Source of the DNA: Candidatus Krumholzibacteriia bacterium
GTDB taxonomy: Bacteria > Krumholzibacteriota > Krumholzibacteriia > WVZY01
Length of the DNA: 16,813 nucleotides
Direction: 5' to 3'
NCBI GenBank assembly: GCA_036478295.1
Contig: JAZGDW010000148.1
Location: 1 to 16,813, forward strand
Shown here: piece by piece, positions 3,232 to 15,263 of the stretch
Numbering within the stretch: the first letter of the stretch is position 1
Layout of the letters: every line of letters begins with the position of its first letter
Notes under the pieces: generated by a model
Seen by the model: only the letters and a program-made list of their open reading frames with translations
Told to the model about the DNA's origin: nothing
Database searches by the model: none
Position numbers and translations under genes: made by a program

Positions 3232-4080
3232 ATGTCACTACGCTCGGCGACAGGAGCTACCCTCCTGCTCACACTGCTGGCGCTTGCTGCGGCGCCGGCA
3301 TGGTCTGCAACCTGGTACATAAAATCCGATGGAACCGGCGACGCTCCAACCATACAGGCGGGTATTACCACGTCGACCAATGGCGACACGGTCCTCGTGG
3401 CGGCGGGTACCTACACCGGCGTGGGAAACATCAACATCGATTTCCTGGGCAAGGCCGTCGTTTTGATATCCGAGAGCGGTCCGGATTTGGCCACCATAGA
3501 CTGCCAGTCCAACGGACGCGGCATTCTTTTCCAGAACGGCGAAGGTCCGGCAAGCGTCCTGTCCGGGTTCACCATCGCCAACGCCCTGGAGACAGGTACT
3601 GGCGGCGCCATCTTCTGTAACGCTGCCTCTCCCGAGATAACCAACAATATCCTCATCAACAACGACGCGGGCACCGGCGCGGGAATCTTCCTCAAACAAA
3701 GCACCGCCGATGTCCACCACAACACCCTCTACGGCAACACGAGCGGCATCTTCATCCAGCAAAATGCGCCGACGGTCCATCACAATATCATCGTCTTCAG
3801 CACCGCCGGTGAGGGTGTTTCCTGTATCGGCGGCACCAGCGCCGTGCTGTCGTTCAACGATATTTTTGGAAACATCGGCGGCGATGCGTTGTGTGCCGTA
3901 GACGGCGGTGGCAACATATCCGCGGCCCCGGAGTTTTGCGGCATCCCCGGCAGCGACAACTTCTACCTCCAGGGCGACTCCCCCTGCGCACCCGAACAGA
4001 TGGGGGCACTGCCCGTCTTGTGTGCGACCACGCCTGTCGAGAAGAAGTCCTGGGGGGCCACCAAAGCCCTCTACCGCTGA
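3232..4080 (+). CDS. Secreted right-handed parallel beta-helix (pectin-lyase-like fold) protein with a conserved C-terminal WGxxKALY tail
   Basis: SD AGGAG. Signal peptide ending AWSA. DGTGDAPTIQAGI..GDTVLVAAGTY, GFTIxN, Asn-ladder repeats and GNISAAPEFC. Ends TPVEKKSWGATKALYR. Confidence 0.85.
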   Translation: MSLRSATGATLLLTLLALAAAPAWSATWYIKSDGTGDAPTIQAGITTSTNGDTVLVAAGTYTGVGNINIDFLGKAVVLISESGPDLATIDCQSNGRGILFQNGEGPASVLSGFTIANALETGTGGAIFCNAASPEITNNILINNDAGTGAGIFLKQSTADVHHNTLYGNTSGIFIQQNAPTVHHNIIVFSTAGEGVSCIGGTSAVLSFNDIFGNIGGDALCAVDGGGNISAAPEFCGIPGSDNFYLQGDSPCAPEQMGALPVLCATTPVEKKSWGATKALYR

Positions 4081-4149
4081 GAATCGGCGCCAAGCGCTGC
4101 CTCGTTGCAAACGTTGAATCGTCATGCTCCTGGTCAACCACTCCAGCTC

Positions 4150-4178
4150 TTCCCGTAAGAGCCATCATCGTCTACAAT
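4150..4178 (+). promoter_or_regulatory. Possible sigma70-type promoter for the helicase gene
   Basis: TTCCCG, 17 bp, TACAAT. The -10 box overlaps the ORF-track ATG at 4177, which argues for a downstream start. Confidence 0.4.
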
Positions 4179-4242
4179 GCATCAGCGCCGACCGCGCCCG
4201 AATATCGAACCTCCCCCCTTCCCGAAAGGTGAGCCTGGAACC

Positions 4243-5541
4243 TTGCAGAACAAAACCGACATCGAAATCACTGAAGAGTACCGGAAGGTAGAGGCCCTCA
4301 TCGCCGCTGATGAGCCGTTAATCTTCGTCACCGGCAAGGCCGGCACAGGCAAATCTACGCTCATCCAATACCTGCGCGACACCGTTCGCGCTGATTGCGT
4401 CGTCCTCGCCCCGACCGGCGTGGCCGCAATGAACATCCAGGGCGCGACGATCCACTCGTTCTTCCGGTTCCCGCCGCGAATGCTGACCGACGCGGACGCG
4501 ACCGAAGTGGCGTTTAAGAAGCCGTACAAAAAACTCCGCCTGTTGATCCTCGACGAAATCTCCATGGTCCGCGCCGATGTGCTCGACGCCGTGGATCGCT
4601 TTCTGCGTCTCAACGGCCCCGATCGCGACCGGCCTTTCGGCGGTGTTCAGTTGCTCATGATCGGAGATCTGCACCAGCTGCCGCCGGTCGTTTCCAACCA
4701 GGATGAACGGCAGCGATTCGACACCGAGTACGAGACGCCGTTCTTCTTCAGCAGCCGTGCGCTGGCCGGCATCGAAATCGCGGCGCTGGAGCTCACCAAA
4801 GTGTTTCGCCAGCAAGACCCGCACTTCATCGAACTGTTGAATCAGGTCCGCCTCGGCGCCCCCACGTCGGACGCGCTAGGCCAGATCAACACGCGGGTCA
4901 CGCCGCACGCGGATGCCAACCGCGAAACCGTTCTCGCCACAACCAATCTGATTGCGGATCGCATCAACAAGCGACACCTGGCCTCCCTACCGACGGTCCG
5001 GCGTTCGTACCACGGCGAAACGCTCGGACTCTTCCCGACCGTCAACGAGCGGCTTCCCTCACCCATGGAACTGATGCTCAAAAAAGACACACGGGTAATG
5101 TTCACGAAGAACGACAGCCAGGCGAGGTGGGTCAACGGCAGCCTGGGAACGGTAATGAAGATGCATGATCACACGGTCATGGTGGAATTGGATGAAACCG
5201 GCAAGAAAGTGGAAGTGACCGAGGCCACGTGGTCAACCTACAAATACGAATACGATGAAGACGAACAACGAAACGTCCCTGTCGTATCGGGCTCGTTTAC
5301 CCAGCTGCCCCTCACTTTCGCCTGGGCCATCACCATTCACAAGAGCCAGGGCAAAACGCTATCCGCCACCCGCATCGACCTGGGGCGCAGCGCGTTCGCA
5401 CCCGGCCAGGTGTATGTGGCCCTAAGTCGCTGCCGCCGGCTAAAAGACCTGTCGCTATCCCGCCAGATCTCTCCCCACGACGTGTTCTGCGACCAACGGG
5501 TGAAAGCGTTTTACGAATCTTTGTTTGCTGCCGCTCGCTAG
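4243..5541 (+). CDS. PIF1/RecD-like superfamily 1B DNA helicase
   Basis: Motifs GKAGTGKS (I), APTG (Ia), TIHSFF, DEISM (II), GDLHQLPPV (III), FRQ (IV), AITIHKSQG (V), YVALSR (VI). Start set at the in-frame TTG 4243 behind AAAGGTGAG; ATG 4177 is the alternative. Confidence 0.92.
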   Translation: MQNKTDIEITEEYRKVEALIAADEPLIFVTGKAGTGKSTLIQYLRDTVRADCVVLAPTGVAAMNIQGATIHSFFRFPPRMLTDADATEVAFKKPYKKLRLLILDEISMVRADVLDAVDRFLRLNGPDRDRPFGGVQLLMIGDLHQLPPVVSNQDERQRFDTEYETPFFFSSRALAGIEIAALELTKVFRQQDPHFIELLNQVRLGAPTSDALGQINTRVTPHADANRETVLATTNLIADRINKRHLASLPTVRRSYHGETLGLFPTVNERLPSPMELMLKKDTRVMFTKNDSQARWVNGSLGTVMKMHDHTVMVELDETGKKVEVTEATWSTYKYEYDEDEQRNVPVVSGSFTQLPLTFAWAITIHKSQGKTLSATRIDLGRSAFAPGQVYVALSRCRRLKDLSLSRQISPHDVFCDQRVKAFYESLFAAAR

Positions 5542-5700
5542 GACCGATGGCAGTGAGGTTGGCGAACTTTGTAAAGACTGAATCATGCACCCCGCGACCA
5601 CTTGATCCACGATCTCGACGTCGAGAACGACAAGCTGGCCCGGGAGATTGCCAAGAAGCCTTGGAAAAGACGGCCGCTCACTTCTGCGCGGCGCGTATTT

Positions 5701-5716
5701 CGGAACGAGAGTTGCT
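5701..5716 (+). promoter_or_regulatory. Possible sigma54 -24/-12 promoter
   Basis: CGGAACGAGAGTTGCT, GG-N10-GC. Predicted transcription start ~5727, just before ATG 5730, which has no SD. Confidence 0.4.
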
Positions 5717-5729
5717 TCACTTTAGCGCC

Positions 5730-6359
5730 ATGCCAAGCACACTCGTCATTGTCGCTATCGTCTTCGCCGCCTTGAGTTTGGGCTTGCTGATCGCCAGCCT
5801 CTCGGCCGGACGGAGGGGCCGGGCCGTTGGGGCGGTGTTCGGTATGCTGGCGGCCCTCCTTTTCCTGGCGCTTTCGGCACTCTGTGCGACCATAACGCTT
5901 GCGACCCAGGGCTACCGTGCTCTGACCCGTGAGGAGGTGGCGGCGAGGGTCACCGTCAACCGTCTCACCCCCAATCGATTCAGCGCCCGTTTCGCCTTTG
6001 CCGACGGTCGCGAGGAAGTCTTCACACTGGCCGGCGACGAATTCTACGTCGACGCCCACATCCTCAAATGGAAACCGGTCGTGAATGTTCTGGGCCTGCA
6101 CACGGTCTACGAACTCGACCGCGTCGCCGGACGCTACATAAAGGTGGAGGACGAACAATCTCTCAGGCGGACAGTCTACCCCCTCGCCCATGAGAAACCT
6201 CTCGACATGTACGACCTGCGCTCGCGCTTTGCGCTGTTCTCGCCACTCGTCGATGCGGAATACGGGTCGGCGACGTTCATCGCCGTGAAGGATTGGGCAG
6301 AATTCGAAGTCCGCGTGTCGACAACCGGCCTCTTGATACGGAAGGTCGACGGCGAGTAG
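5730..6359 (+). CDS. Hypothetical membrane protein (2 N-terminal TM helices plus a soluble beta-rich domain)
   Basis: From the ATG at 5730: two long hydrophobic segments, then YRALTREE...GDEFYVDAHILKWK..LGLHTVYELDRVAGRY...LVDAEYGSATF. The ORF-track extension to 5547 looks non-coding. Confidence 0.75.
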   Translation: MPSTLVIVAIVFAALSLGLLIASLSAGRRGRAVGAVFGMLAALLFLALSALCATITLATQGYRALTREEVAARVTVNRLTPNRFSARFAFADGREEVFTLAGDEFYVDAHILKWKPVVNVLGLHTVYELDRVAGRYIKVEDEQSLRRTVYPLAHEKPLDMYDLRSRFALFSPLVDAEYGSATFIAVKDWAEFEVRVSTTGLLIRKVDGE

Positions 6360-6447
6360 CCGCGAACGCCGCACTAAGAGAAACGCCGCCAACACCGAAG
6401 CAATCGTTGTTCCCCGTGACGGTCAACGGGTGCCCGCGTCGTTCTCG

Positions 6448-6972
6448 CTAATCTCTCAGGAAATGACAGTGGTAGCCGCCGGGGTTTTTCTGCAGATAAT
6501 CCTGGTGGTACTGCTCCGCCGAATAGAACGGCCCCGCTGGTACGACTTCCGTCACAACCGCATCCGGCCATTTACCGGAACGGTCAACGCGGTTTTTTAC
6601 TTTGAGTGCGGTGTCTTTTTGCTCTTCGCTCCGGTAGAAGATCGCCGACCGATACTGGGTACCGCGGTCGTTTCCCTGCCGGTTTTTCGTGGTCGGGTCG
6701 TGGAGCCTGAAGAAGTAGTCCAGCACTTGCTCGTACGAGATCTTCCCGGGATCGAACACGACCTGCACCGCCTCTGCATGCCCGGTGTCTCCCGTTATCA
6801 CGTCCTCGTAGGTGGGATCGCGAAAGGAACCCCCCGCATACCCGACCTCAGTATCGAGGACGCCGTTGATCTCGCGGAAGATGCCTTCGACCCCCCAGAA
6901 GCAGCCGGCAGCGAGGATCGCGACCTCGGTCCTCTCGCCGTCGGGCGTCGTATTGCTCTTGTCGTTCGTCAT
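6448..6972 (-). CDS. msrA: Peptide-methionine (S)-S-oxide reductase MsrA
   Basis: Catalytic GCFWG, PTYEDV, TGHAEAV, HDPT..NRQGND.GTQYRSAIF, AEQYHQDYL.KNPGGYHCH. GAGAGG upstream. Confidence 0.97.
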   Translation of the reverse strand: MTNDKSNTTPDGERTEVAILAAGCFWGVEGIFREINGVLDTEVGYAGGSFRDPTYEDVITGDTGHAEAVQVVFDPGKISYEQVLDYFFRLHDPTTKNRQGNDRGTQYRSAIFYRSEEQKDTALKVKNRVDRSGKWPDAVVTEVVPAGPFYSAEQYHQDYLQKNPGGYHCHFLRD

Positions 6973-7005
6973 GTTCGCCCGGCCTCTCTATCGAAACAGT
7001 GCCAG

Positions 7006-7032
7006 ATTATACTGCATCTTGACATTTGTCAA
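7006..7032 (-). promoter_or_regulatory. msrA promoter overlapped by the palindrome TTGAC-N4-GTCAA
   Basis: Minus strand TTGACA (7032-7027), 15-bp spacer, TATAAT (7011-7006). 7019-7032 reads TTGACATTTGTCAA. Confidence 0.65.
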
Positions 7033-7089
7033 TTATGGCGGCCGGCAGTACGAGCGCGGCACAGGTGGCGCCTTGCGCGATCCGCTACA

Positions 7090-7231
7090 CCACTCCCGTG
7101 CGGGACCAACTTTCGGTGGTGAAACCAGCCGCCACTCCCGCAGCGGGACCAACTTTCGGTGGTGAAAGCAGCCGCCCCTCCCACAGCGGGAGCGCGCTGC
7201 CTTAGAAACGACAGGCCACTCCCGCTGCGGG
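7090..7231. repeat. Intergenic tandem repeat, period 41-43 bp, with a hairpin core
   Basis: Cores at 7090 (CCACTCCCGTGCGGG), 7132 (CCACTCCCGCAGCGGG), 7175 (CCCCTCCCACAGCGGG) and 7216 (CCACTCCCGCTGCGGG). Units 1 and 2 also share ACCAACTTTCGGTGGTGAAA(C/G)CAGCCG. Confidence 0.85.
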
Positions 7232-7277
7232 TTATCCGATCGTAGTCACCAGCGTATCACGACGGTTTCTACGATCA

Positions 7278-8531
7278 TTACGGCGTCAAACAGCTCTCGT
7301 TGACGCGATAACTGTTGCGACCGTTCGTAGAGACCATCAACGACGTCAACACCCGCTCCACACCTCCATCCTGCGGTGCGATCTGCTTGGTGCTGAACAT
7401 CACACTCTCCATGTCGCCGCTGATCAGGCCTTCTTGAAAGTCGATCGTGCGCACTTGAAACGACTCGCCTATGGGCACAGGCGGCTGCTGCGTGATGTCC
7501 AGCGGTGTCGCCGTCAGGTGCCCCGAAATCCGCGAGTGGTAGAGATAGTGGCCCGATGGGTTGACCCCCGCGGTCTTGCTGAGCTCCACCGGTCCCTGTA
7601 CGAGAAAGAAATCGGAGGGGCCGCCGATGCAAAACGGCTTGGGGATGACCTGGTTGAACTCGATGACGAGCGACTCGGTTGTTTCCGCCGCCATCACCGG
7701 TGTACTACCCACAAGATGCAGAATCGTCGCCGTGCCAGCGGATGGAATCGGCACCGCGGGATCCATCGTGGAACCTGGCGGTAGTCCACACGCCACCTTG
7801 AGAGCGTCCGGCACCCCGTTGTATATGGCCGCCGGGATACTCCGGTAGGTCGGCGTTTCGTTGATGATACCAGTGGCCGCCGGTGGCACGGGGTCAATCA
7901 GCCCGCTTCGGATCATGTCCACAATGACGAGCTGCTCGGCCAGTTGCCAACAGATGACCTGGTGCTCGGGCGTGCCCGGGATCGCTATCTCGAAATGCGC
8001 GCCGCCAAGCGTCCACGTGCCATCTGTCCCGAAGCGTTGCCCCGAGGAAAAGAAGCGCAAGTGCACGCGAACGGGCGCGTAGGATCCCAGTTGCAACTGA
8101 ACAACGCTCCCGGACCAGCCGCCACCTTCGCTGTATGCGGTCTGGACATTTCCGATGGCTTCGGACCACGTCGCATTAAACGGATGCGTGTTCGGAAAAC
8201 CGAACGCTGTCCGGTCCCCGTCGAGCGCCATCAGCGCCGCCCGGATCTGGAGCGGTTCGGCCTCACCCACAAAGATGAGATTGATCGGATCCTTCGGAAC
8301 TCCGCCGAAATCCGTCCCCGTGTAGGGCCAGAAGCTCAACTGCTCCCCTGCCCAGGTGACTTCGACGAGTCCTGGTGGCGGATCCGAGGTATTCTTCGAC
8401 AGTGTTACGACACCGAGTTCACCGGCGGACGGCTCCTCGCCCACGGCGGGGTTGTCGCCGGAACACCCTCCCAGTGCGATCGCCGCACCGCTGAACACGA
8501 TGAGAATGGCAGAAAACGGATTAACACGCAT
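7278..8531 (-). CDS. Hypothetical lipoprotein (417 aa)
   Basis: Strong SD AAGGAGG. Signal peptide with lipobox LGGC. Globular, Gly/Pro/beta-rich mature part; no family confidently recognised. Confidence 0.8.
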   Translation of the reverse strand: MRVNPFSAILIVFSGAAIALGGCSGDNPAVGEEPSAGELGVVTLSKNTSDPPPGLVEVTWAGEQLSFWPYTGTDFGGVPKDPINLIFVGEAEPLQIRAALMALDGDRTAFGFPNTHPFNATWSEAIGNVQTAYSEGGGWSGSVVQLQLGSYAPVRVHLRFFSSGQRFGTDGTWTLGGAHFEIAIPGTPEHQVICWQLAEQLVIVDMIRSGLIDPVPPAATGIINETPTYRSIPAAIYNGVPDALKVACGLPPGSTMDPAVPIPSAGTATILHLVGSTPVMAAETTESLVIEFNQVIPKPFCIGGPSDFFLVQGPVELSKTAGVNPSGHYLYHSRISGHLTATPLDITQQPPVPIGESFQVRTIDFQEGLISGDMESVMFSTKQIAPQDGGVERVLTSLMVSTNGRNSYRVNESCLTP

Positions 8532-8646
8532 GGCAGACCTCCTTGCGGTGATTAGACTTACTCCAACTTCGCCGACCCTAGCACGGGGCCGGGCGGCGCC
8601 CGACCCGGCTTTGTCGCCTGGAGCATCGAGGCAAGGATGTGAGAAT

Positions 8647-8707
8647 ATCTGAGTTTGTGCTCACATTACGACACTATGTATATGAGCTATTACTCACATT
8701 TTGTCAA
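8647..8707. promoter_or_regulatory. Tandem palindromic operator-like sites upstream of the lipoprotein gene
   Basis: ATCTGAGtttgtgCTCACATT (8647-8667) and ATATGAGctattaCTCACATT (8680-8700), 33 bp apart, next to a minus-strand TTGACA at 8707-8702. Confidence 0.65.
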
Positions 8708-8867
8708 GGGGCCTTTTTGCGCTGGCCAGGCCACGGTCAAGTAACCCACATATTTGCAATGGGATCAGTATCAAGGCGCAGGCTGATGGCTTCGACTGGA
8801 CAGGTGAGACGGCCCCACTCGCCCCTACCGCTCTGCGAGACCGGCTGCCCTTTTGGCGGGGCTGTCT

Positions 8868-10569
8868 TTATTTCACCAAGACCATCTTCCGGGTCTTCGA
8901 AAACCCGGGTCCCTGAAGCCGATAGAAATAGATGCCTGAGGCGACACGCCTGCCGCGGGTGTTCCTTCCATCCCACATCACTTGCCGCTCGCCGGGTGTC
9001 CGCACGTTTGCGTCGACGAGGGTGCGTACGAGCCGCCCGCCGGCATCGTAGATTCTGAGGCTCACACGACCACCCCCGGCCGGCACGTCAAAGCGAATCA
9101 CCGTTACCGGGTTGAACGGATTGGGCAGGTTCTGATGCAGAACGGCCGCGCGCGACGGCGAGTCTTCTCTGCCATCGCCAGTGGGCGCGCCCCCGGTTGA
9201 ATCACACGAATGTGGTCGTAGGCCTCAAACCTCGCCTCGCCCACCAAGCCCGTGATCTTGAGTTCAATGTCGTCACCGACATCGAGAATATCCTGAACGG
9301 CTTCTCTGGAAAACTTGACCATGAGATCCGGCGTGCCGTCGCCGTCCTCGTCCCCCACCGAGGCGGGATTACTCTGGGCGGGCACGGCGTCGTTCAGCAT
9401 GATCGAACTCACGTCCACGTCGGCGGCGGAGCACTCACATTCGCCGGTAACTTCAATATAGGCGCTTATCCAACGCCCGCTCGACTTCAGGTTCAAGGTG
9501 CGAGGACGGACCTCGACCGTCGCCGATACGAAAATACCGGAGAAGTCCGGAGTCACGGAAATCTCGTTCGAGAAGGGACTCTCGCCCTCGCCGTCGACGG
9601 CGGTCACCCGAAAGTAGAGCGTGGTCCCCGCCGCAAAACCAAGTACCTCAAACGTGCTCTCGCTCGTCCGGCCCGCCAGCTCGGCCGGATTCGGCGCCTG
9701 CCCCCAATAGATATTGTAGCCCTCGACAGCTTCATCCCCGAACTTTGTAAAGTGTAGCCTTAGGCTCTGGTTCTTGGTTTCCGCCCACAGGTACGGCGCA
9801 GCCGCTACGCCTGCCCACTCGAAACGAAACGACCGGTAGCTGGCTGTTTCTTGAAATCGAGCACGAAGCCGCCGGGAGCTTTCTGGAAATACACCGGGAA
9901 CCCCGTGTTGCCCAGAATCATCATGTACGGTGTGCCCGGAGGAGTACCGGGAAAGGTGAAGTTGGAAAGAAAAATGTGCCCAGGTGCGGGGTTGTCCGTC
10001 GTCGTAATCGTTATGTCCGGAAAATCGGACGGCAGCTAGAAAGTGCCGGGCAAGACGTTTTTTGACAGCTTCTGCGGCTTCTCCTCCGGATAATCTCCCG
10101 TGCGCCTTCCCGGAAGCGCGGCCCCAAGCCCGACGCAGTCGCACAACTCGGTGACGGGTTCTCTTGCCGGCCACGCCGTCTTGGGTGAGATCGTGAAGCT
10201 GAACGCGAAGTCCCCCGTCGAGCGGCCACCGCCGCGTGATTCTCCAACCGTAACGCGGACGACCTCACCCGGTACGAATTCCCGATACGGTTTGAAGATC
10301 ACGGTTCTCGAGTCCCTGGCGGTGACCCACTCGCCATGGTGCACGCCGCTCCGGGCACCCGAGACGGTGACTCCGCCCGTCCAGTCGCTTCGCGACGCTT
10401 TGAACCCCGCGGTGGGCCGAAAGATAACCGTCGTTTGCCTGGACACAAGCTCCGCACCAGGGAGTGGCGACAGGTAATAAAAGGGCCCTTCCTGTGTCTT
10501 GGCAGAAGGGCCGCCGGCAAACAACGCTACAAACGCGATGGACACTGCGAGATATGTCAGCCTTCGCAT
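8868..10569 (-). pseudogene. Decayed paralog of the aryl-sulfate sulfotransferase-like gene at 11593..14091
   Basis: Colinear with the intact copy (GPFYYLSPLPGA, YMMIL.NTG, DFKKQP, SYR.FRFEW, GESPFSNEI, TLNLKS.GRWI, QNxPNPFNP, GIYFYRL). Lesions: in-frame TAG at 10038-10036 where the paralog has Glu; DFKKQP fused out of frame to SYRSFRF at ~9841; frameshift at ~9186-9194. Confidence 0.9.
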
Positions 10570-10909
10570 ACCTGGTTCCTCCGTCTTGTCAAGCAGTTAC
10601 AGCAGGCCGCTAATACTTCAGCCCCGGCTCGCGAGGCATTCAAGCCGTCGGTCCGGTCCCCAGAGGGTGTTCACTATAACACAGGGTCCGCGTGACGACC
10701 ACTGACGGGGTCGATCCCGGTGCGCGAAGGCTGATCCAACCACCTGTTCCATACACGGTTACGCTCGTGTGCGGAATTGAGAATTGTCAACTAAATGACC
10801 GATTCCAAGATCCGTTGATTTCGCTTTATAGACGCCCGATTTTGTTATATGATCCCGCTCCTAAATTGAAGGCGTTGTGGAGTCGGCATTCAGACAAAGG
10901 AGTTCGCAG

Positions 10910-11551
10910 ATGAGAATTGCTAAGGTATTTCTCGTTACCCTTGTCGCGCTGACCGTGGTCGGAGCGTCTCTTGCAAGCGCACAAACGCCTTACATCGGCG
11001 TGTTCTTCGAGGTCACACCGGATTTCAACGGCAAAGGAGAAACGGCGATCCCGCCGGGCGCGGGAGGGGAGATTGATTCGGTCTTTTTTGTCGCGTACAA
11101 CTTGAACTGCCTTGTAACGGGGTTTCAGTTCGCGGTGGATTACGGACCGTGCCTGACGCTCATCGCAGACCTGGATGTGCCCGCGCTGCCCGTGGCTGGC
11201 CCCGGTGTAACCTTCGGTACTACTGCCACCGGCATTTCAATCGTATACTCCGCAGGGAATGTACGCTTCGGGGTTCTGCCCAACTTCAAGGATGGAACGA
11301 AGAACGTGCACATTGCGACGTCAATCGTTCAGTGGAGCACAACGGGTGCATGTCGGAATTGTTCGGTAACAGACAGGCCAGTGATCGTCAAGGAGAACAT
11401 TTTCTTCGGCAACCCGACTCCCGTGTATCTCTGTTTCGCGACGGGGGTTAATGTTTTTCATCCAGCCGAGGGTCTCACCGCGCTCATTTGCGCCACCGTG
11501 CCGGTTGAAGAGAGTACGTGGGGCAAAGTGAAGGCGTTGTACACGCGGTAG
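10910..11551 (+). CDS. Secreted Cys-containing hypothetical protein (possibly cohesin-like beta-sandwich) with a conserved C-terminal WGxxKALY tail
   Basis: SD AAGGAG before ATG 10910. Signal peptide MRIAKVFLVTLVALTVVGASLASA. Beta-strand pattern with several Cys. Ends VPVEESTWGKVKALYTR. The fold assignment is a guess. Confidence 0.8.
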   Translation: MRIAKVFLVTLVALTVVGASLASAQTPYIGVFFEVTPDFNGKGETAIPPGAGGEIDSVFFVAYNLNCLVTGFQFAVDYGPCLTLIADLDVPALPVAGPGVTFGTTATGISIVYSAGNVRFGVLPNFKDGTKNVHIATSIVQWSTTGACRNCSVTDRPVIVKENIFFGNPTPVYLCFATGVNVFHPAEGLTALICATVPVEESTWGKVKALYTR

Positions 11552-11592: not shown

Positions 11593-14091
11593 CTACTTCA
11601 GCAGAACCATCTTCCGGGTTTGCGAAAACCCGGGTCCCTGGAGCCTGTAGAAATAAATTCCTGACGCGACGCGCGTACCGCGGGCGTCCGTGCTATCCCA
11701 CGTCACTTCCCCGTGGTGCGGGCGGGCGATATCCTCATCGACGAGGGTGCGTACGAGCCGGCCGCCGGTATCGTATATCCGTAACGTGACACGGCCACTC
11801 CCCGCGGGGAGATCATAGCGAATAACGGTCGACGGGTTGAACGGGTTGGGCCGGTTCTGTTGCAAAACAGTTTGCTGCGGCCTGCGATCTCTCTCCCCAT
11901 CTTCTGCAAGCGTGCCCGGCCGGATCACGCGAATGTAATCGATCGCCTCGAACGGAGCGCCACTCACCGATCCCGTGACCTTGAGCGCCACGTCCTCTCC
12001 AACATCGAGAATCTCCGCGATGGCTTGTCTGTCAAACTTCACCATGAGATCCGGCGTTCCGTCGCCGTCCGCGTCCCCCACAGTGGCCGGATGGTTGTCC
12101 GCGGGTACGGCGTCATTTAGCAGCAGCGAACTCACGTCGACCTCGGCTGCGGAGCGCTCGCAATCGCCGCCAAACTCGAGATACGCTGTGATCCACCGCC
12201 CTTTCGATTTCAGGTTCAAGGTACGCGGGTGAAACTCGACGGTCGCGGACGCCTCGATGTCCGTCAAGTCCGGGGTGACGCAAATCTCATTCGAAAAAGG
12301 ACTCTCGCCTTCTTCATCCACAGCAGTCACCCGGAAGTACAGCGGCACCCCCCCGGTAAAGCAGTGAACGTCGAACCGGTTTTCACTCGTTCTACCCGCC
12401 AGCTCGGTCGGATTCGGTGTGTCCCCTCGATAGACGTTGTAGGTCCGGACATCCCGGTCACCGAACTTGGTGAAGTGTAGCGTCAGGGTCTCGGTCTCCG
12501 TCTTCGCCCACAGGTACGGCGCCGCCGCCACGGCTTCCCATTCAAAGCGAAACGCGCGGTAACTGAACACCTTGTCGGCAAACTCCATCTCGAATGCCTT
12601 CTCGCCGTCCGGGCGAACCTCCGTCACGCCCGGGTGTGTGCTGCCCCAACCGATGACCGAATTTCCGTTCGCAAGCCTCTGTATATTGCCCATCGCGATG
12701 CCGAGCGTCGCCGGGTCGTTGCGAAACTGCCAGACGCGGGTGGCGGTCTTGTTCACCTCGTCGACCTCGTACTCGATCACCCGGGACTCCGGCGGGTCGT
12801 GGAAGTTGCCGTTGTCGTACAGCGTTATCGTACCGCTATCCAGGCGCCTGCACGAATGCTGGTACGAAAACCACAGCGTGTCGCCCACCAGGGTAAACTC
12901 GTTGTTCTTGCCGCCCATGCGCCAGATGATGTCGCCGGTGTCGCGGTTGATCTTGGTGATCTCATCGAGGTGCCGCGAGGAGAGCAGCAGATGCCCGTCG
13001 CGGTCGAGTTCGATTGAATTGGGGTGCACGTAATCGATGCTCGAGCGCGTGAAGTCCAGCTGCGTGGCGTCGAGAATGTCAAAATGGTCCCAGCTCCGCC
13101 ACTGAAAGACCACGTTCTTGTCCGGGTCCACTTCCTGAATGATGAGTCCGAAGACCGTGGCGTTCGGGTCGCCTCCGGTGACAATCTGGCTCATGTCGAT
13201 CTTCTGGTCGTCCACGCCCATCAGCAGCGCGTTTCCGTCCGGCAGGATCTGCAGGTCGTGTACGTCCGTGCCAAAACCCTGCGCCCAGAAGCTGTCGACA
13301 ACGGTGTAGGTATTGTCCATCAGGAAATACTTGCTCCCCCAGACCATGTAAGACAATCGCTCGTCCGGCTGCTTCTTGAAATCCATCGTGAAGCGGCCGG
13401 CGGCCTTCTGGAAAAAGATGGGAGCGCCCGTGTTGTCCAGGATCATCATGTAATGACTGTTGGGGGGGTCATCCCGGAAGGTCAAACTGGAGACGAAAAT
13501 GTATCCGGGCGACGGATTGTCCAGCGTCGTGACCGTTCTATCCGGAAACCCTGCCGGCAGTTCGATATTCCCGGGCATGACGTGTCTGGACAACTTCTGG
13601 GGCTTTTCCAGCGGGTAGTCTCCGCGGCGCGATCCTGAAAACGCCGGTTCGACACAGTCACAGAGCTTGGTAACCGTTTCCCTTTCCAGTCCCGCCACCT
13701 TCGGTGAGATCGTGAACGTAAATGCGAAGGTCCCCGTCGACCAGCGACCGCCTGGCGATTCGCCCACGGTGACACGCACGCGCTCACCCGGTTCGAATTC
13801 CCGGTGCGGTTTGAAGATCACGGTCTTCGAGTCCCGGGCGAACACCCAGTCGCCATCGTGAACCCCACTCCGGGTGCCCGTGACGGTGACTCCGCTTGTC
13901 CACCCCCCCTGCCCCGCCTTGAACGCTGCAGTCGGCCGAAAGATCAGTGTCGCTTGTGTGGAAACAAGGTCCGCCCCCGGCAGTGGCGACAGGTAGTAAA
14001 ACGGTCCTTCGTCCGTTCTGGCAGAAGGACCGCTGAGGAAAAAAAGCGTGGAAACTCCGATAAATGCCACGAGGGATGCAATTCTTCTCAT
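11593..14091 (-). CDS. Secreted aryl-sulfate sulfotransferase (ASST)-like protein with N-terminal Ig-like, FN3-like, DxDxDG-containing and C-terminal FlgD-Ig/T9SS-like domains (832 aa)
   Basis: Start ATG 14091 behind AAAGGA. ASST-type motifs DVHDLQILPDG, DYVHPNSIELD, LLLSSRH, IIWRMGG, SYQH, LYDNG, GNIQRLANGN.VIGWG. FN3-like YNVYRG...YFRVTAVD..GESPFSNE. C-terminus QNRPNPFNPST.IRY...IYD..GRLVRTL...GIYFYRL...TRKMVLLK. Confidence 0.88.
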   Translation of the reverse strand: MRRIASLVAFIGVSTLFFLSGPSARTDEGPFYYLSPLPGADLVSTQATLIFRPTAAFKAGQGGWTSGVTVTGTRSGVHDGDWVFARDSKTVIFKPHREFEPGERVRVTVGESPGGRWSTGTFAFTFTISPKVAGLERETVTKLCDCVEPAFSGSRRGDYPLEKPQKLSRHVMPGNIELPAGFPDRTVTTLDNPSPGYIFVSSLTFRDDPPNSHYMMILDNTGAPIFFQKAAGRFTMDFKKQPDERLSYMVWGSKYFLMDNTYTVVDSFWAQGFGTDVHDLQILPDGNALLMGVDDQKIDMSQIVTGGDPNATVFGLIIQEVDPDKNVVFQWRSWDHFDILDATQLDFTRSSIDYVHPNSIELDRDGHLLLSSRHLDEITKINRDTGDIIWRMGGKNNEFTLVGDTLWFSYQHSCRRLDSGTITLYDNGNFHDPPESRVIEYEVDEVNKTATRVWQFRNDPATLGIAMGNIQRLANGNSVIGWGSTHPGVTEVRPDGEKAFEMEFADKVFSYRAFRFEWEAVAAAPYLWAKTETETLTLHFTKFGDRDVRTYNVYRGDTPNPTELAGRTSENRFDVHCFTGGVPLYFRVTAVDEEGESPFSNEICVTPDLTDIEASATVEFHPRTLNLKSKGRWITAYLEFGGDCERSAAEVDVSSLLLNDAVPADNHPATVGDADGDGTPDLMVKFDRQAIAEILDVGEDVALKVTGSVSGAPFEAIDYIRVIRPGTLAEDGERDRRPQQTVLQQNRPNPFNPSTVIRYDLPAGSGRVTLRIYDTGGRLVRTLVDEDIARPHHGEVTWDSTDARGTRVASGIYFYRLQGPGFSQTRKMVLLK

Positions 14092-14360: not shown

Positions 14361-15263
14361 ATGACCAAAGATCACGAGGCGCCAACCAAGAACGAGTCCG
14401 CCGCCGACGCGGCGGACTCATCGATCGACGAAGCGCCTGTGCAGGAATCGCCGATTAACCAGCCCGTCGCAGAGGCGTTTCCGAGCAGCCCGAGCCCGCC
14501 GGATCAGGTTGACCGCTCCAGCCTGCACGCCGAGGCCGAACGGCTGACAGCGTTCAAGAACGCGAAACTCAAGAAAAACAACCAGACGCCGTGTCCTGCG
14601 TGTGCCACCCTGGTTCATATCGACGAGAACCTGTGTCCACACTGCAACACGGACATCGCCGCGAACAATGCCCTCGTGCGCGAGTCCGTGCGCCGGCTCA
14701 AGGACATCAACTCCCAACTGGGGAGCATCCGCGGGCAGGCGTGGCGCAGTCGTTTGAAGCGCATAATCTGGCCGATATGGCAGCGGGTCCAGGGCTTCTT
14801 TCTCGATCCCACGCGGCGAGACGACCTGAGGGTGATGATTCCTTCGCTCGCCGGGTTCTTAGCGGTGGTCATCGTCGTGCGCGTGACCGGCAATACGCTG
14901 CTCTTCTGGTCGGTCTCGATCATCGGCGGCGTCGTTGCCTATTACCTGCTCGGCAGATCCCGTACGCGACGATACGTCACGATGGACTTCTACCGCATGG
15001 CGCTCGTCTTCGGATTGATGCTTGTCATGACCACGTCAGTCGTCGGGCCCACGTCGTTCTCCGGCGGCACGGCCAGGGCGATGGTCACCGTGCAGTCGGC
15101 GAAGGTGAACATCCGCAGGTCCGCCACCACGGACTCGCGCATCGTGACCACGGTGCAGGAGGGCGATCAGCTGGCCTTACTCAAGCGCGGAGACGCCTGG
15201 TACAAGGTCAGGACACCCGATGGAAAAACTGGCTGGGTGTTCGCAAACCTGGTGAAGGAATAA
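14361..15263 (+). CDS. Zn-ribbon / coiled-coil / 3-TM / C-terminal SH3b-domain membrane protein (paralog B)
   Basis: SD GAGGTGG before ATG 14361. Acidic/Pro-rich N-terminus, CPAC-x10-CPHC, three hydrophobic segments, VNIRRSATTDSRIVTT...WYKVRTPDGKTGWVFANLV. Confidence 0.85.
   Translation: MTKDHEAPTKNESAADAADSSIDEAPVQESPINQPVAEAFPSSPSPPDQVDRSSLHAEAERLTAFKNAKLKKNNQTPCPACATLVHIDENLCPHCNTDIAANNALVRESVRRLKDINSQLGSIRGQAWRSRLKRIIWPIWQRVQGFFLDPTRRDDLRVMIPSLAGFLAVVIVVRVTGNTLLFWSVSIIGGVVAYYLLGRSRTRRYVTMDFYRMALVFGLMLVMTTSVVGPTSFSGGTARAMVTVQSAKVNIRRSATTDSRIVTTVQEGDQLALLKRGDAWYKVRTPDGKTGWVFANLVKE

Follow-up and report, generated by a model that had tools for sequence, protein, structure and literature searches.

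A short portable C-terminal tail on exported proteins of Krumholzibacteriia as a candidate type IX sorting signal

The closest described counterparts of the element examined here are the C-terminal signals that belong to type IX secretion systems (T9SS). Type A signals (TIGR04183 / PF18962) are beta-sandwiches of 67-88 residues that are served by the PorV shuttle and the PorU sortase. The accessible portions of PMC11969387 describe short T9SS C-terminal domains (CTDs) of 43-55 residues in Prevotella intermedia, which form a three-stranded sheet with motifs B, D and E, and whose shortened signals are still cleaved and glycosylated. Type B CTDs, as presented in the available sections of PMC12618676, use cognate PorP/SprF shuttles, with dedicated partners encoded beside some cargo genes. 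Here we analyse a tail of 17 residues that ends two otherwise unrelated exported proteins encoded in a 16,813-nucleotide stretch of DNA (the window) from a Candidatus Krumholzibacteriia bacterium (assembly GCA_036478295.1, contig JAZGDW010000148.1). The tail appears to work like a T9SS C-terminal signal, yet it lies outside the type A, short, type B and transmembrane sortase signals. We lean towards the interpretation that it is an undescribed address tag sending small exported proteins to the T9SS for surface attachment, where export, cleavage and a receptor are steps that we infer; that the tail is linked to the T9SS in some form is, taken by itself, quite likely. No description of the tail was found in the literature searched, from which supplements and subscription papers were outside scope, and the supplementary cargo table of some paper could list the single-copy Bacteroidota protein discussed below.

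The two copies of the tail in the window (Table 1) translate as CATTPVEKKSWGATKALYR at the end of a beta-helix protein and CATVPVEESTWGKVKALYTR at the end of a 213-amino-acid (aa) protein, each followed by a stop. An initial annotation of this DNA had claimed that these proteins share the tail and cannot otherwise be aligned, and our comparison agrees: the alignment is confined to the final 20 residues (12/20 identical, E 9e-7), and segments outside the last 20 residues give E>1 throughout. The Sec signal peptides that it had assigned to both are likewise borne out by N-termini that look like signal peptides, judging from the sequence and a hydrophobicity heuristic.

The tail recurs in the window's genome (3.5 Mb, 91% complete) more than chance would allow. 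Its consensus is [VT]-[PAGS]-[VT]-E-x-x-[ST]-W-G-x-[IV]-K-x-L-[YF], and of the 48 matches to the core pattern [ST]WG.[IVLTMAF]K in 49,853 stop-to-stop frames, 37 fall no more than 15 residues from a stop. A profile made from these 37 tails scores its members at 33-52, one internal copy at 28.5 and the next site at 14, although the gap exists partly by construction. The heuristic recognises a signal peptide in 32/37 tail proteins, compared with 45/52 CTD proteins and a background of 565/1907 long frames; three of the five tail proteins without one are truncated frames or fragments, and a lipobox-like match occurs in 1/37, upstream of its likely start. The scan of the proteome and the signal-peptide enrichment suggested by the initial annotation thus both favour its view of a portable C-terminal motif on exported proteins. 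The carriers are mostly small and have unrelated folds (cytochrome c, CHRD, LTD, NHL, BACON, DUF7450, Temptin_C, Rax2 and beta-helix domains), with a cohesin-like family supplying 15/37. One is a multiheme cytochrome c (L022:3775-4545, contig C129), a possible outer-surface electron carrier if the tail serves surface display.

The best 15-residue mean hydropathy in the last 30 residues is below 1.5 in 36/37 tail proteins and the tail contains Glu and Lys, in keeping with the earlier statement that it is too weakly hydrophobic for a transmembrane anchor. That it falls outside the known families of sorting signal also holds: no Pfam or NCBIfam model covers it, the NCBIfam comparison of 88 tails yielded one chance match (E 0.11), and a search of the ESM Atlas returned only clusters without names. 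The proposed amphipathic helix fares less well. A helix is predicted over the tail in the AlphaFold model of the 213-aa protein, at a low confidence (pLDDT about 51-55), and the hydrophobic moment is only modestly above that of shuffled sequences (0.37 vs 0.31).

The genome of the window encodes SprA, PorV, four C25 peptidase matches and 85 FlgD-Ig matches. The C25 matches appear to include PorU (followed by porV), a second homologue that we call PorU-B and a gingipain-like protein; the PorU and PorU-B genes are each broken by a contig end. A set of 66 proteins with a long T9SS-type CTD includes none with the tail, and none of the 37 tail proteins has the long domain. Median frames are 233 aa for the tail proteins and 725 aa for the long-domain proteins, and 17/37 tail proteins have a homologue among the 66. 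In 3/37 (two CHRD proteins and the beta-helix protein of the window) the long domain of a paralogue starts at the junction of the tail; for the beta-helix protein, it is a FlgD-Ig T9SS-type CTD that takes this position in the paralogues. The tail is terminal and portable, and it both excludes and exchanges with the long T9SS-type domain. We also considered a dedicated PorV-family barrel, and rejected it given that 11 NF033709 matches in the genome include seven non-porV neighbourhoods that we viewed, none with a tail gene. On contigs C218, C203, C190, C265 and C139, a PorV-family barrel gene directly follows a protein with a modified FlgD-Ig CTD, suggesting dedicated cargo-barrel pairs.

In gene order, the tail is associated with PorU-B. 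PorU-B matches came from 120 genomes; we took the best locus in 48 of these, picked for long contigs across families, and found tail genes on the same strand within 5 kb upstream of PorU-B in 43/48, against a background of 2.5% of random positions. Among the five loci without them, one lacks upstream DNA and the other four show rearrangement; five further loci, chosen partly since tails had already been seen there, have tails in 5/5. At PorU-porV loci tail genes are upstream in 0/12, one of which has little upstream DNA. The usual order is a dockerin-like gene, one to five cohesin-like tail genes and PorU-B, as on contig C48, where a dockerin-like gene and four tail genes stand directly upstream of PorU-B. 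The flanking genes (L036-L083) we take from their sequences to be mltG upstream and peptidoglycan-recycling genes downstream; on the downstream side there are presumably a sugar ABC transporter and genes resembling murQ, anmK, spoIID and nagZ. Because the genomes sampled are kin, these counts show a conserved operon rather than independent events. In the Eisenbacteria phylum, 4/12 tail arrays (three of the 12 views being short) lie 3-6 kb upstream of PorU-B, one of them with a dockerin-like gene.

PorU-B itself appears to be catalytically intact, with His and Cys invariant in 46/46 aligned copies. It matches PF01364 (E 1.6e-52), has its own FlgD_ig C-terminal domain and finds PorU (6ZA2) as its sole match in PDB, yet it scores below the NCBIfam cut-offs for PorU (NF033707, 193 bits vs 420) and PorU2 (NF052324, 92 vs 450), and porV is absent from every PorU-B locus examined. 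Our tree of the catalytic regions of PorU homologues includes three mis-picked frames (L060, L062 and L087) and is used qualitatively. A co-fold of PorU-B (residues 22-960) with a 32-residue tail scored 0.02 against a mark of 0.32, with no folded controls, and is counted neither way. One Fermentibacteria genome (L273) has two full-length PorU homologues nearly in tandem.

The 213-aa protein is not an orphan but belongs to the conserved family of this operon: the tail genes that precede PorU-B are its paralogues, and it is 52% identical to a C48 operon gene. Its AlphaFold model (pLDDT 80) comprises a signal helix, a beta-sandwich and the low-confidence helix over the tail. Cohesins come out on top in Foldseek (E about 1e-5) and occupy the top 15 rows in VIA-align (Z 11.8, root-mean-square deviation 2.3 over 119 residues), so that a cohesin fold is predicted. 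The first gene of the operon ends in a twin calcium-loop repeat that resembles a dockerin in sequence, an assignment made from the motif alone, with no significant Pfam match. Gene order makes the two a candidate pair that recalls cohesin-dockerin scaffolds. However, the 213-aa protein is 8-14% identical to solved cohesins and lacks a Pfam cohesin match, and the cohesin-fold proteins of the operon are single-domain rather than scaffoldins.

Beyond the window's genome, an alignment of the tail matched 120/121 genomes sampled from the same phylum, and the lone tail-negative genome has three diverged tails at its PorU-B locus. A second alignment matched 59/61 genomes of the Eisenbacteria phylum and 25/41 of the Fermentibacteria phylum. 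A scan of GTDB DNA with a pattern that did not require a stop gave at least 129 matches (two counted twice, at overlapping loci), and 105 of the 129 listed are within 8 codons of a stop. Those listed are mostly from records titled Eisenbacteria, Krumholzibacteria, Latescibacterota and Fermentibacteria, and the scan also matched Roseithermus sacchariphilus, Hymenobacter artigasi and a record titled Melioribacter sp. In all, the tail is present in four phyla. Five IMG/VR contigs (L101-L105) have the tail at a gene end and may represent either phage-borne cargo or host DNA. In Fermentibacteria-phylum genomes (L329-L332), four to six tail proteins of 200 aa are encoded in tandem, beside a gene that we take to be uvrB-like.

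In Bacteroidota, the tail is carried by a protein of about 135 aa consisting of a signal peptide, one Ig-like domain and the terminal tail, which is present as a single copy in cultured Rhodothermus profundi, Roseithermus and Hymenobacter. One full-length copy occurs in 72 of 201 Bacteroidota genomes, counting the 150 matches listed, among which weaker copies may be missed. On the same count it is found in 72/145 PorU-positive and 0/56 PorU-negative genomes, so the tail is confined to PorU-positive members of the Bacteroidota sampled. This phylogenetic profiling against peptidase genes, which had been recommended, is confounded by lineage. All 131 short representatives from a library search retain the tail: W, G, K and F are invariant, more than 90% have [TS]-[AGS]-[VI] at positions -6 to -4, and the tail is more conserved than the domain before it. 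The Ig domain also matches Ig domains in long proteins, and many of these have a type-A-like CTD at their end. Conserved T9SS neighbours were not seen within 1.5 kb flanks of the tail gene at 30 loci; the neighbours there are presumably fur, pyrR, tmk, maf and SpoIID-like genes, with what we take to be a SpoIID-like gene after the tail gene in 4/30.

Given these observations, the tail can be compared with each known system. Like type A cargo, tail proteins have a Sec signal peptide and a C-terminal signal without a transmembrane helix, the tail sits at the same junction on paralogous cargo, and the genome of the window encodes SprA, PorV and PorU. In Bacteroidota, a similar [TS]-small-[VI] linker precedes it and the listed matches are only in PorU-positive genomes. 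In contrast to type A signals, it is a predicted helix of about 17 residues, strongly conserved in sequence, without a TIGR04183 / PF18962 match, borne mainly by small cargo and commoner where GldN was not found. It is under half the length of the short P. intermedia CTDs and unlike them in predicted structure, so far as the accessible portions of PMC11969387 describe them. It resembles type B CTDs, as characterised in the available sections of PMC12618676, in being a second signal class, but it has no TIGR04131 match and its conserved neighbour is a PorU paralogue rather than a barrel. With tripartite signals (LPXTG, PEP-CTERM, GlyGly-CTERM and MYXO-CTERM) it shares a short, portable, C-terminal form on many unrelated exported proteins and a candidate peptidase encoded beside its flagship cargo; it differs from these, and from IPTL-CTERM, in lacking a transmembrane helix or basic end and in having a C25 peptidase as its candidate enzyme. 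PorU-B in turn resembles the PorU sortase in its Peptidase C25 domain, His/Cys dyad and own C-terminal domain, and differs in falling short of the NF033707 cut-off and having no adjacent porV.

In the model that we favour, cargo would be exported by Sec and then fold in the periplasm, where a component of the T9SS would bind the W-G-x-[IV]-K-x-x-[YF] core; the cargo would reach the surface via SprA. The [TSV]-[AGSP]-[VIT] linker would be cut, and the cargo joined to a glycolipid on the surface, by a PorU-type C25 peptidase: PorU-B in this phylum, and PorU if no PorU-B is found. Proteins encoded by the conserved operon would form a scaffold on the surface, with the cohesin-fold members binding a dockerin-like partner. 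Whether PorU-B is the enzyme that cuts the tail seems to us close to an even bet, tilting slightly towards the negative. At T9SS cleavage sites that have been measured, T/GI and T/SL for example, the +1 residue is small, with Ile at +2 in P. intermedia, according to the accessible portions of PMC11969387, and the Bacteroidota linker fits this pattern. The reading of the tail as a secretion, processing or surface-attachment tag in the initial annotation is therefore supported, although its function is inferred; the tail is not limited to the two proteins of the window, it is enriched on exported proteins and at their ends, and it belongs to no described system that we could match. The machinery, which the initial annotation had left unnamed, can now be narrowed: the evidence points to the T9SS, plus a second PorU-type sortase in this phylum.

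Several observations weigh against this model. The T9SS signals known so far form folded beta structures, 43-88 residues long, whose intact fold is thought necessary, at least in the accessible parts of PMC11969387 and PMC11285876. A 17-residue predicted helix could not bind PorV as folded beta signals do, and since the known signals need folded beta structure (PMC11285876, accessible part), the tail would have to be read by a different receptor. In the 91%-complete genome we found no GldN, in a survey that did not extend to PorK, PorL and PorM. Although 70/105 PorU-positive Bacteroidota genomes without GldN found have the tail protein, compared with 2/40 with GldN (among the matches listed; the model detects GldN in 51/201 genomes), this profile and that of PorU are confounded by lineage. 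We tried NCBIfam PorU2 (NF052324) as the tail enzyme in Bacteroidota and rejected it, as the tail protein is listed in 3/27 genomes over the cut-off. A linker profile (tail positions -7 to -3) scored 63 pre-domain linkers no better than it did shuffles (p 0.62) or upstream windows (p 0.06). Starting from PorU-B in Eisenbacteria, a tail lies within 5 kb upstream at 0/4 loci and at 5-7 kb at 2/4; Fermentibacteria tail arrays are near PorU-B in 0/6, and a third C25 clade has tail genes upstream in 1/2 loci (L085). Furthermore, the operon is one inherited locus, whose link to PorU-B may be to the cohesin family rather than the tail.

The main rival to a cleaved signal is a docking peptide that is never cut, binding a scaffold or carrier (PorU-B acting as a platform, a barrel of the PorV family, or some periplasmic protein) and so holding small proteins in place or letting them piggy-back out. 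Such a peptide would suit the invariance of W, G, K and the last aromatic residue while the linker varies. Two further observations favour it and count against cleavage: Pro occupies the expected small-residue position at the cut site in 33/37 tails of the window's genome, and the one internal copy of a tail-like sequence is in the loop of an NTF2-like lipoprotein, where it has no free C-terminus. (There are two such lipoproteins, L008:2609-4156 on contig C45 and C54:11692-12393, one with a clear and one with a degenerate sequence, and two paralogues have a different loop at the same place.) However, the tail is nearly always terminal, it exchanges with a signal type that is cleavable, and it adjoins a peptidase that is predicted to be intact from its retained His and Cys. 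We therefore judge a docking peptide to be unlikely, though it deserves serious attention. An improbable alternative is that the tail forms a helix which acts on its own, binding membrane lipid or lipopolysaccharide independently of the T9SS, with the PorU association of the tail due to shared ancestry. Trp, Lys and a terminal aromatic would suit a membrane interface, a helix is predicted, and the lineage confounding noted for Bacteroidota would be expected, but the hydrophobic moment barely exceeds that of shuffles, the gene order with an intact PorU paralogue holds in two phyla, and a near-invariant tail in 131 divergent proteins implies a protein partner.

Two other explanations receive very little of our credence. 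IPTL-CTERM has a WG motif, and the CHRD, LTD, NHL and DUF7450 domains of tail cargo are also typical of PEP-CTERM proteins, which would speak for a signal read by a transmembrane sortase-type enzyme of the exosortase, rhombosortase or myxosortase class, such as a relative of IPTL-CTERM. The tail already disfavours this by having no transmembrane segment and no basic cluster; the single NCBIfam match among the tails was due to chance, and exosortase was not found in the 91%-complete genome (sortase, rhombosortase and myxosortase were not searched for). It is just as hard to credit that gene duplication left the tail behind as a by-product, or that it is the structural end of one family, with no sorting role. 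The share of carriers in one cohesin-like family is suggestive here, as is the 91% DNA identity between the 213-aa gene and its C48 paralogue over the final 82 bases, but cytochrome c, CHRD, LTD, NHL, beta-helix, Temptin_C and Rax2 domains occur among the remaining 22 carriers, and the tail spans four phyla and is better conserved than the domain it follows.

The window includes a representative of the other sorting class in this genome, the CTD of an arylsulfotransferase-like protein (Table 1), whose TIGR04183 score is 22.9 bits against a cut-off of 23. A broken paralogue of its gene, 60-65% identical, is at 8871-10566 (-), where residues 242-467 are missing and the remainder is spread across three reading frames. 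A stand-alone PIF1-like helicase (4177-5541, +) is encoded directly 3' of the beta-helix gene, and two paralogous membrane proteins that are 39% identical (2161-2961, +, and about 14480-15263, +) each combine hydrophobic segments with a zinc ribbon and an SH3 domain at the C-terminus.

Table 1. Tail-bearing proteins and a long-domain protein encoded in the window
Feature	Position	Strand	Basis or detail
282-aa right-handed beta-helix protein with signal peptide and tail	3232..4080	+	Open reading frame; Pfam Beta_helix E 6e-8
Signal peptide of the 282-aa beta-helix protein	about 3232-3309		
Tail copy 1	4021..4080	+	W at 4051, K at 4063, Y at 4072, stop 4078-4080
213-aa protein: signal peptide, predicted cohesin-fold domain (residues 25-196), tail	10910..11551	+	
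Signal peptide of the 213-aa protein	about 10910-10981		
Tail copy 2, end of the 213-aa protein	11489..11551	+	
Arylsulfotransferase-like protein with FlgD-Ig / T9SS type-A-like CTD	11593..14088	-	Pfam Arylsulfotran_2, FlgD_ig

A broader proposal, which we regard as possible but offer tentatively, is that the tail is an ancestral, peptide-sized T9SS signal. It would be read by motor-less machines that lack PorKLMN and processed by its own sortase, PorU-B, building a cohesin-dockerin surface layer in Krumholzibacteria/Eisenbacteria-type bacteria, and what would survive of it in Rhodothermus, Ignavibacteria-type genomes and Hymenobacter is a single, ultra-conserved substrate.

To our knowledge, every described T9SS signal is a folded beta domain. 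If the tail is indeed a sorting signal, a peptide of 17 residues doing the job of such domains would change how cargo recognition by the T9SS is viewed, and the unexplained PorU paralogue PorU-B would gain a role. The secretomes predicted for several uncultured phyla would gain many unannotated surface proteins, and surface display might make use of the tail as a very short tag. Given that one conserved copy is present in Rhodothermus, Roseithermus and Hymenobacter, which are cultured and non-pathogenic, these ideas can be tested without culturing any member of the window's phylum.

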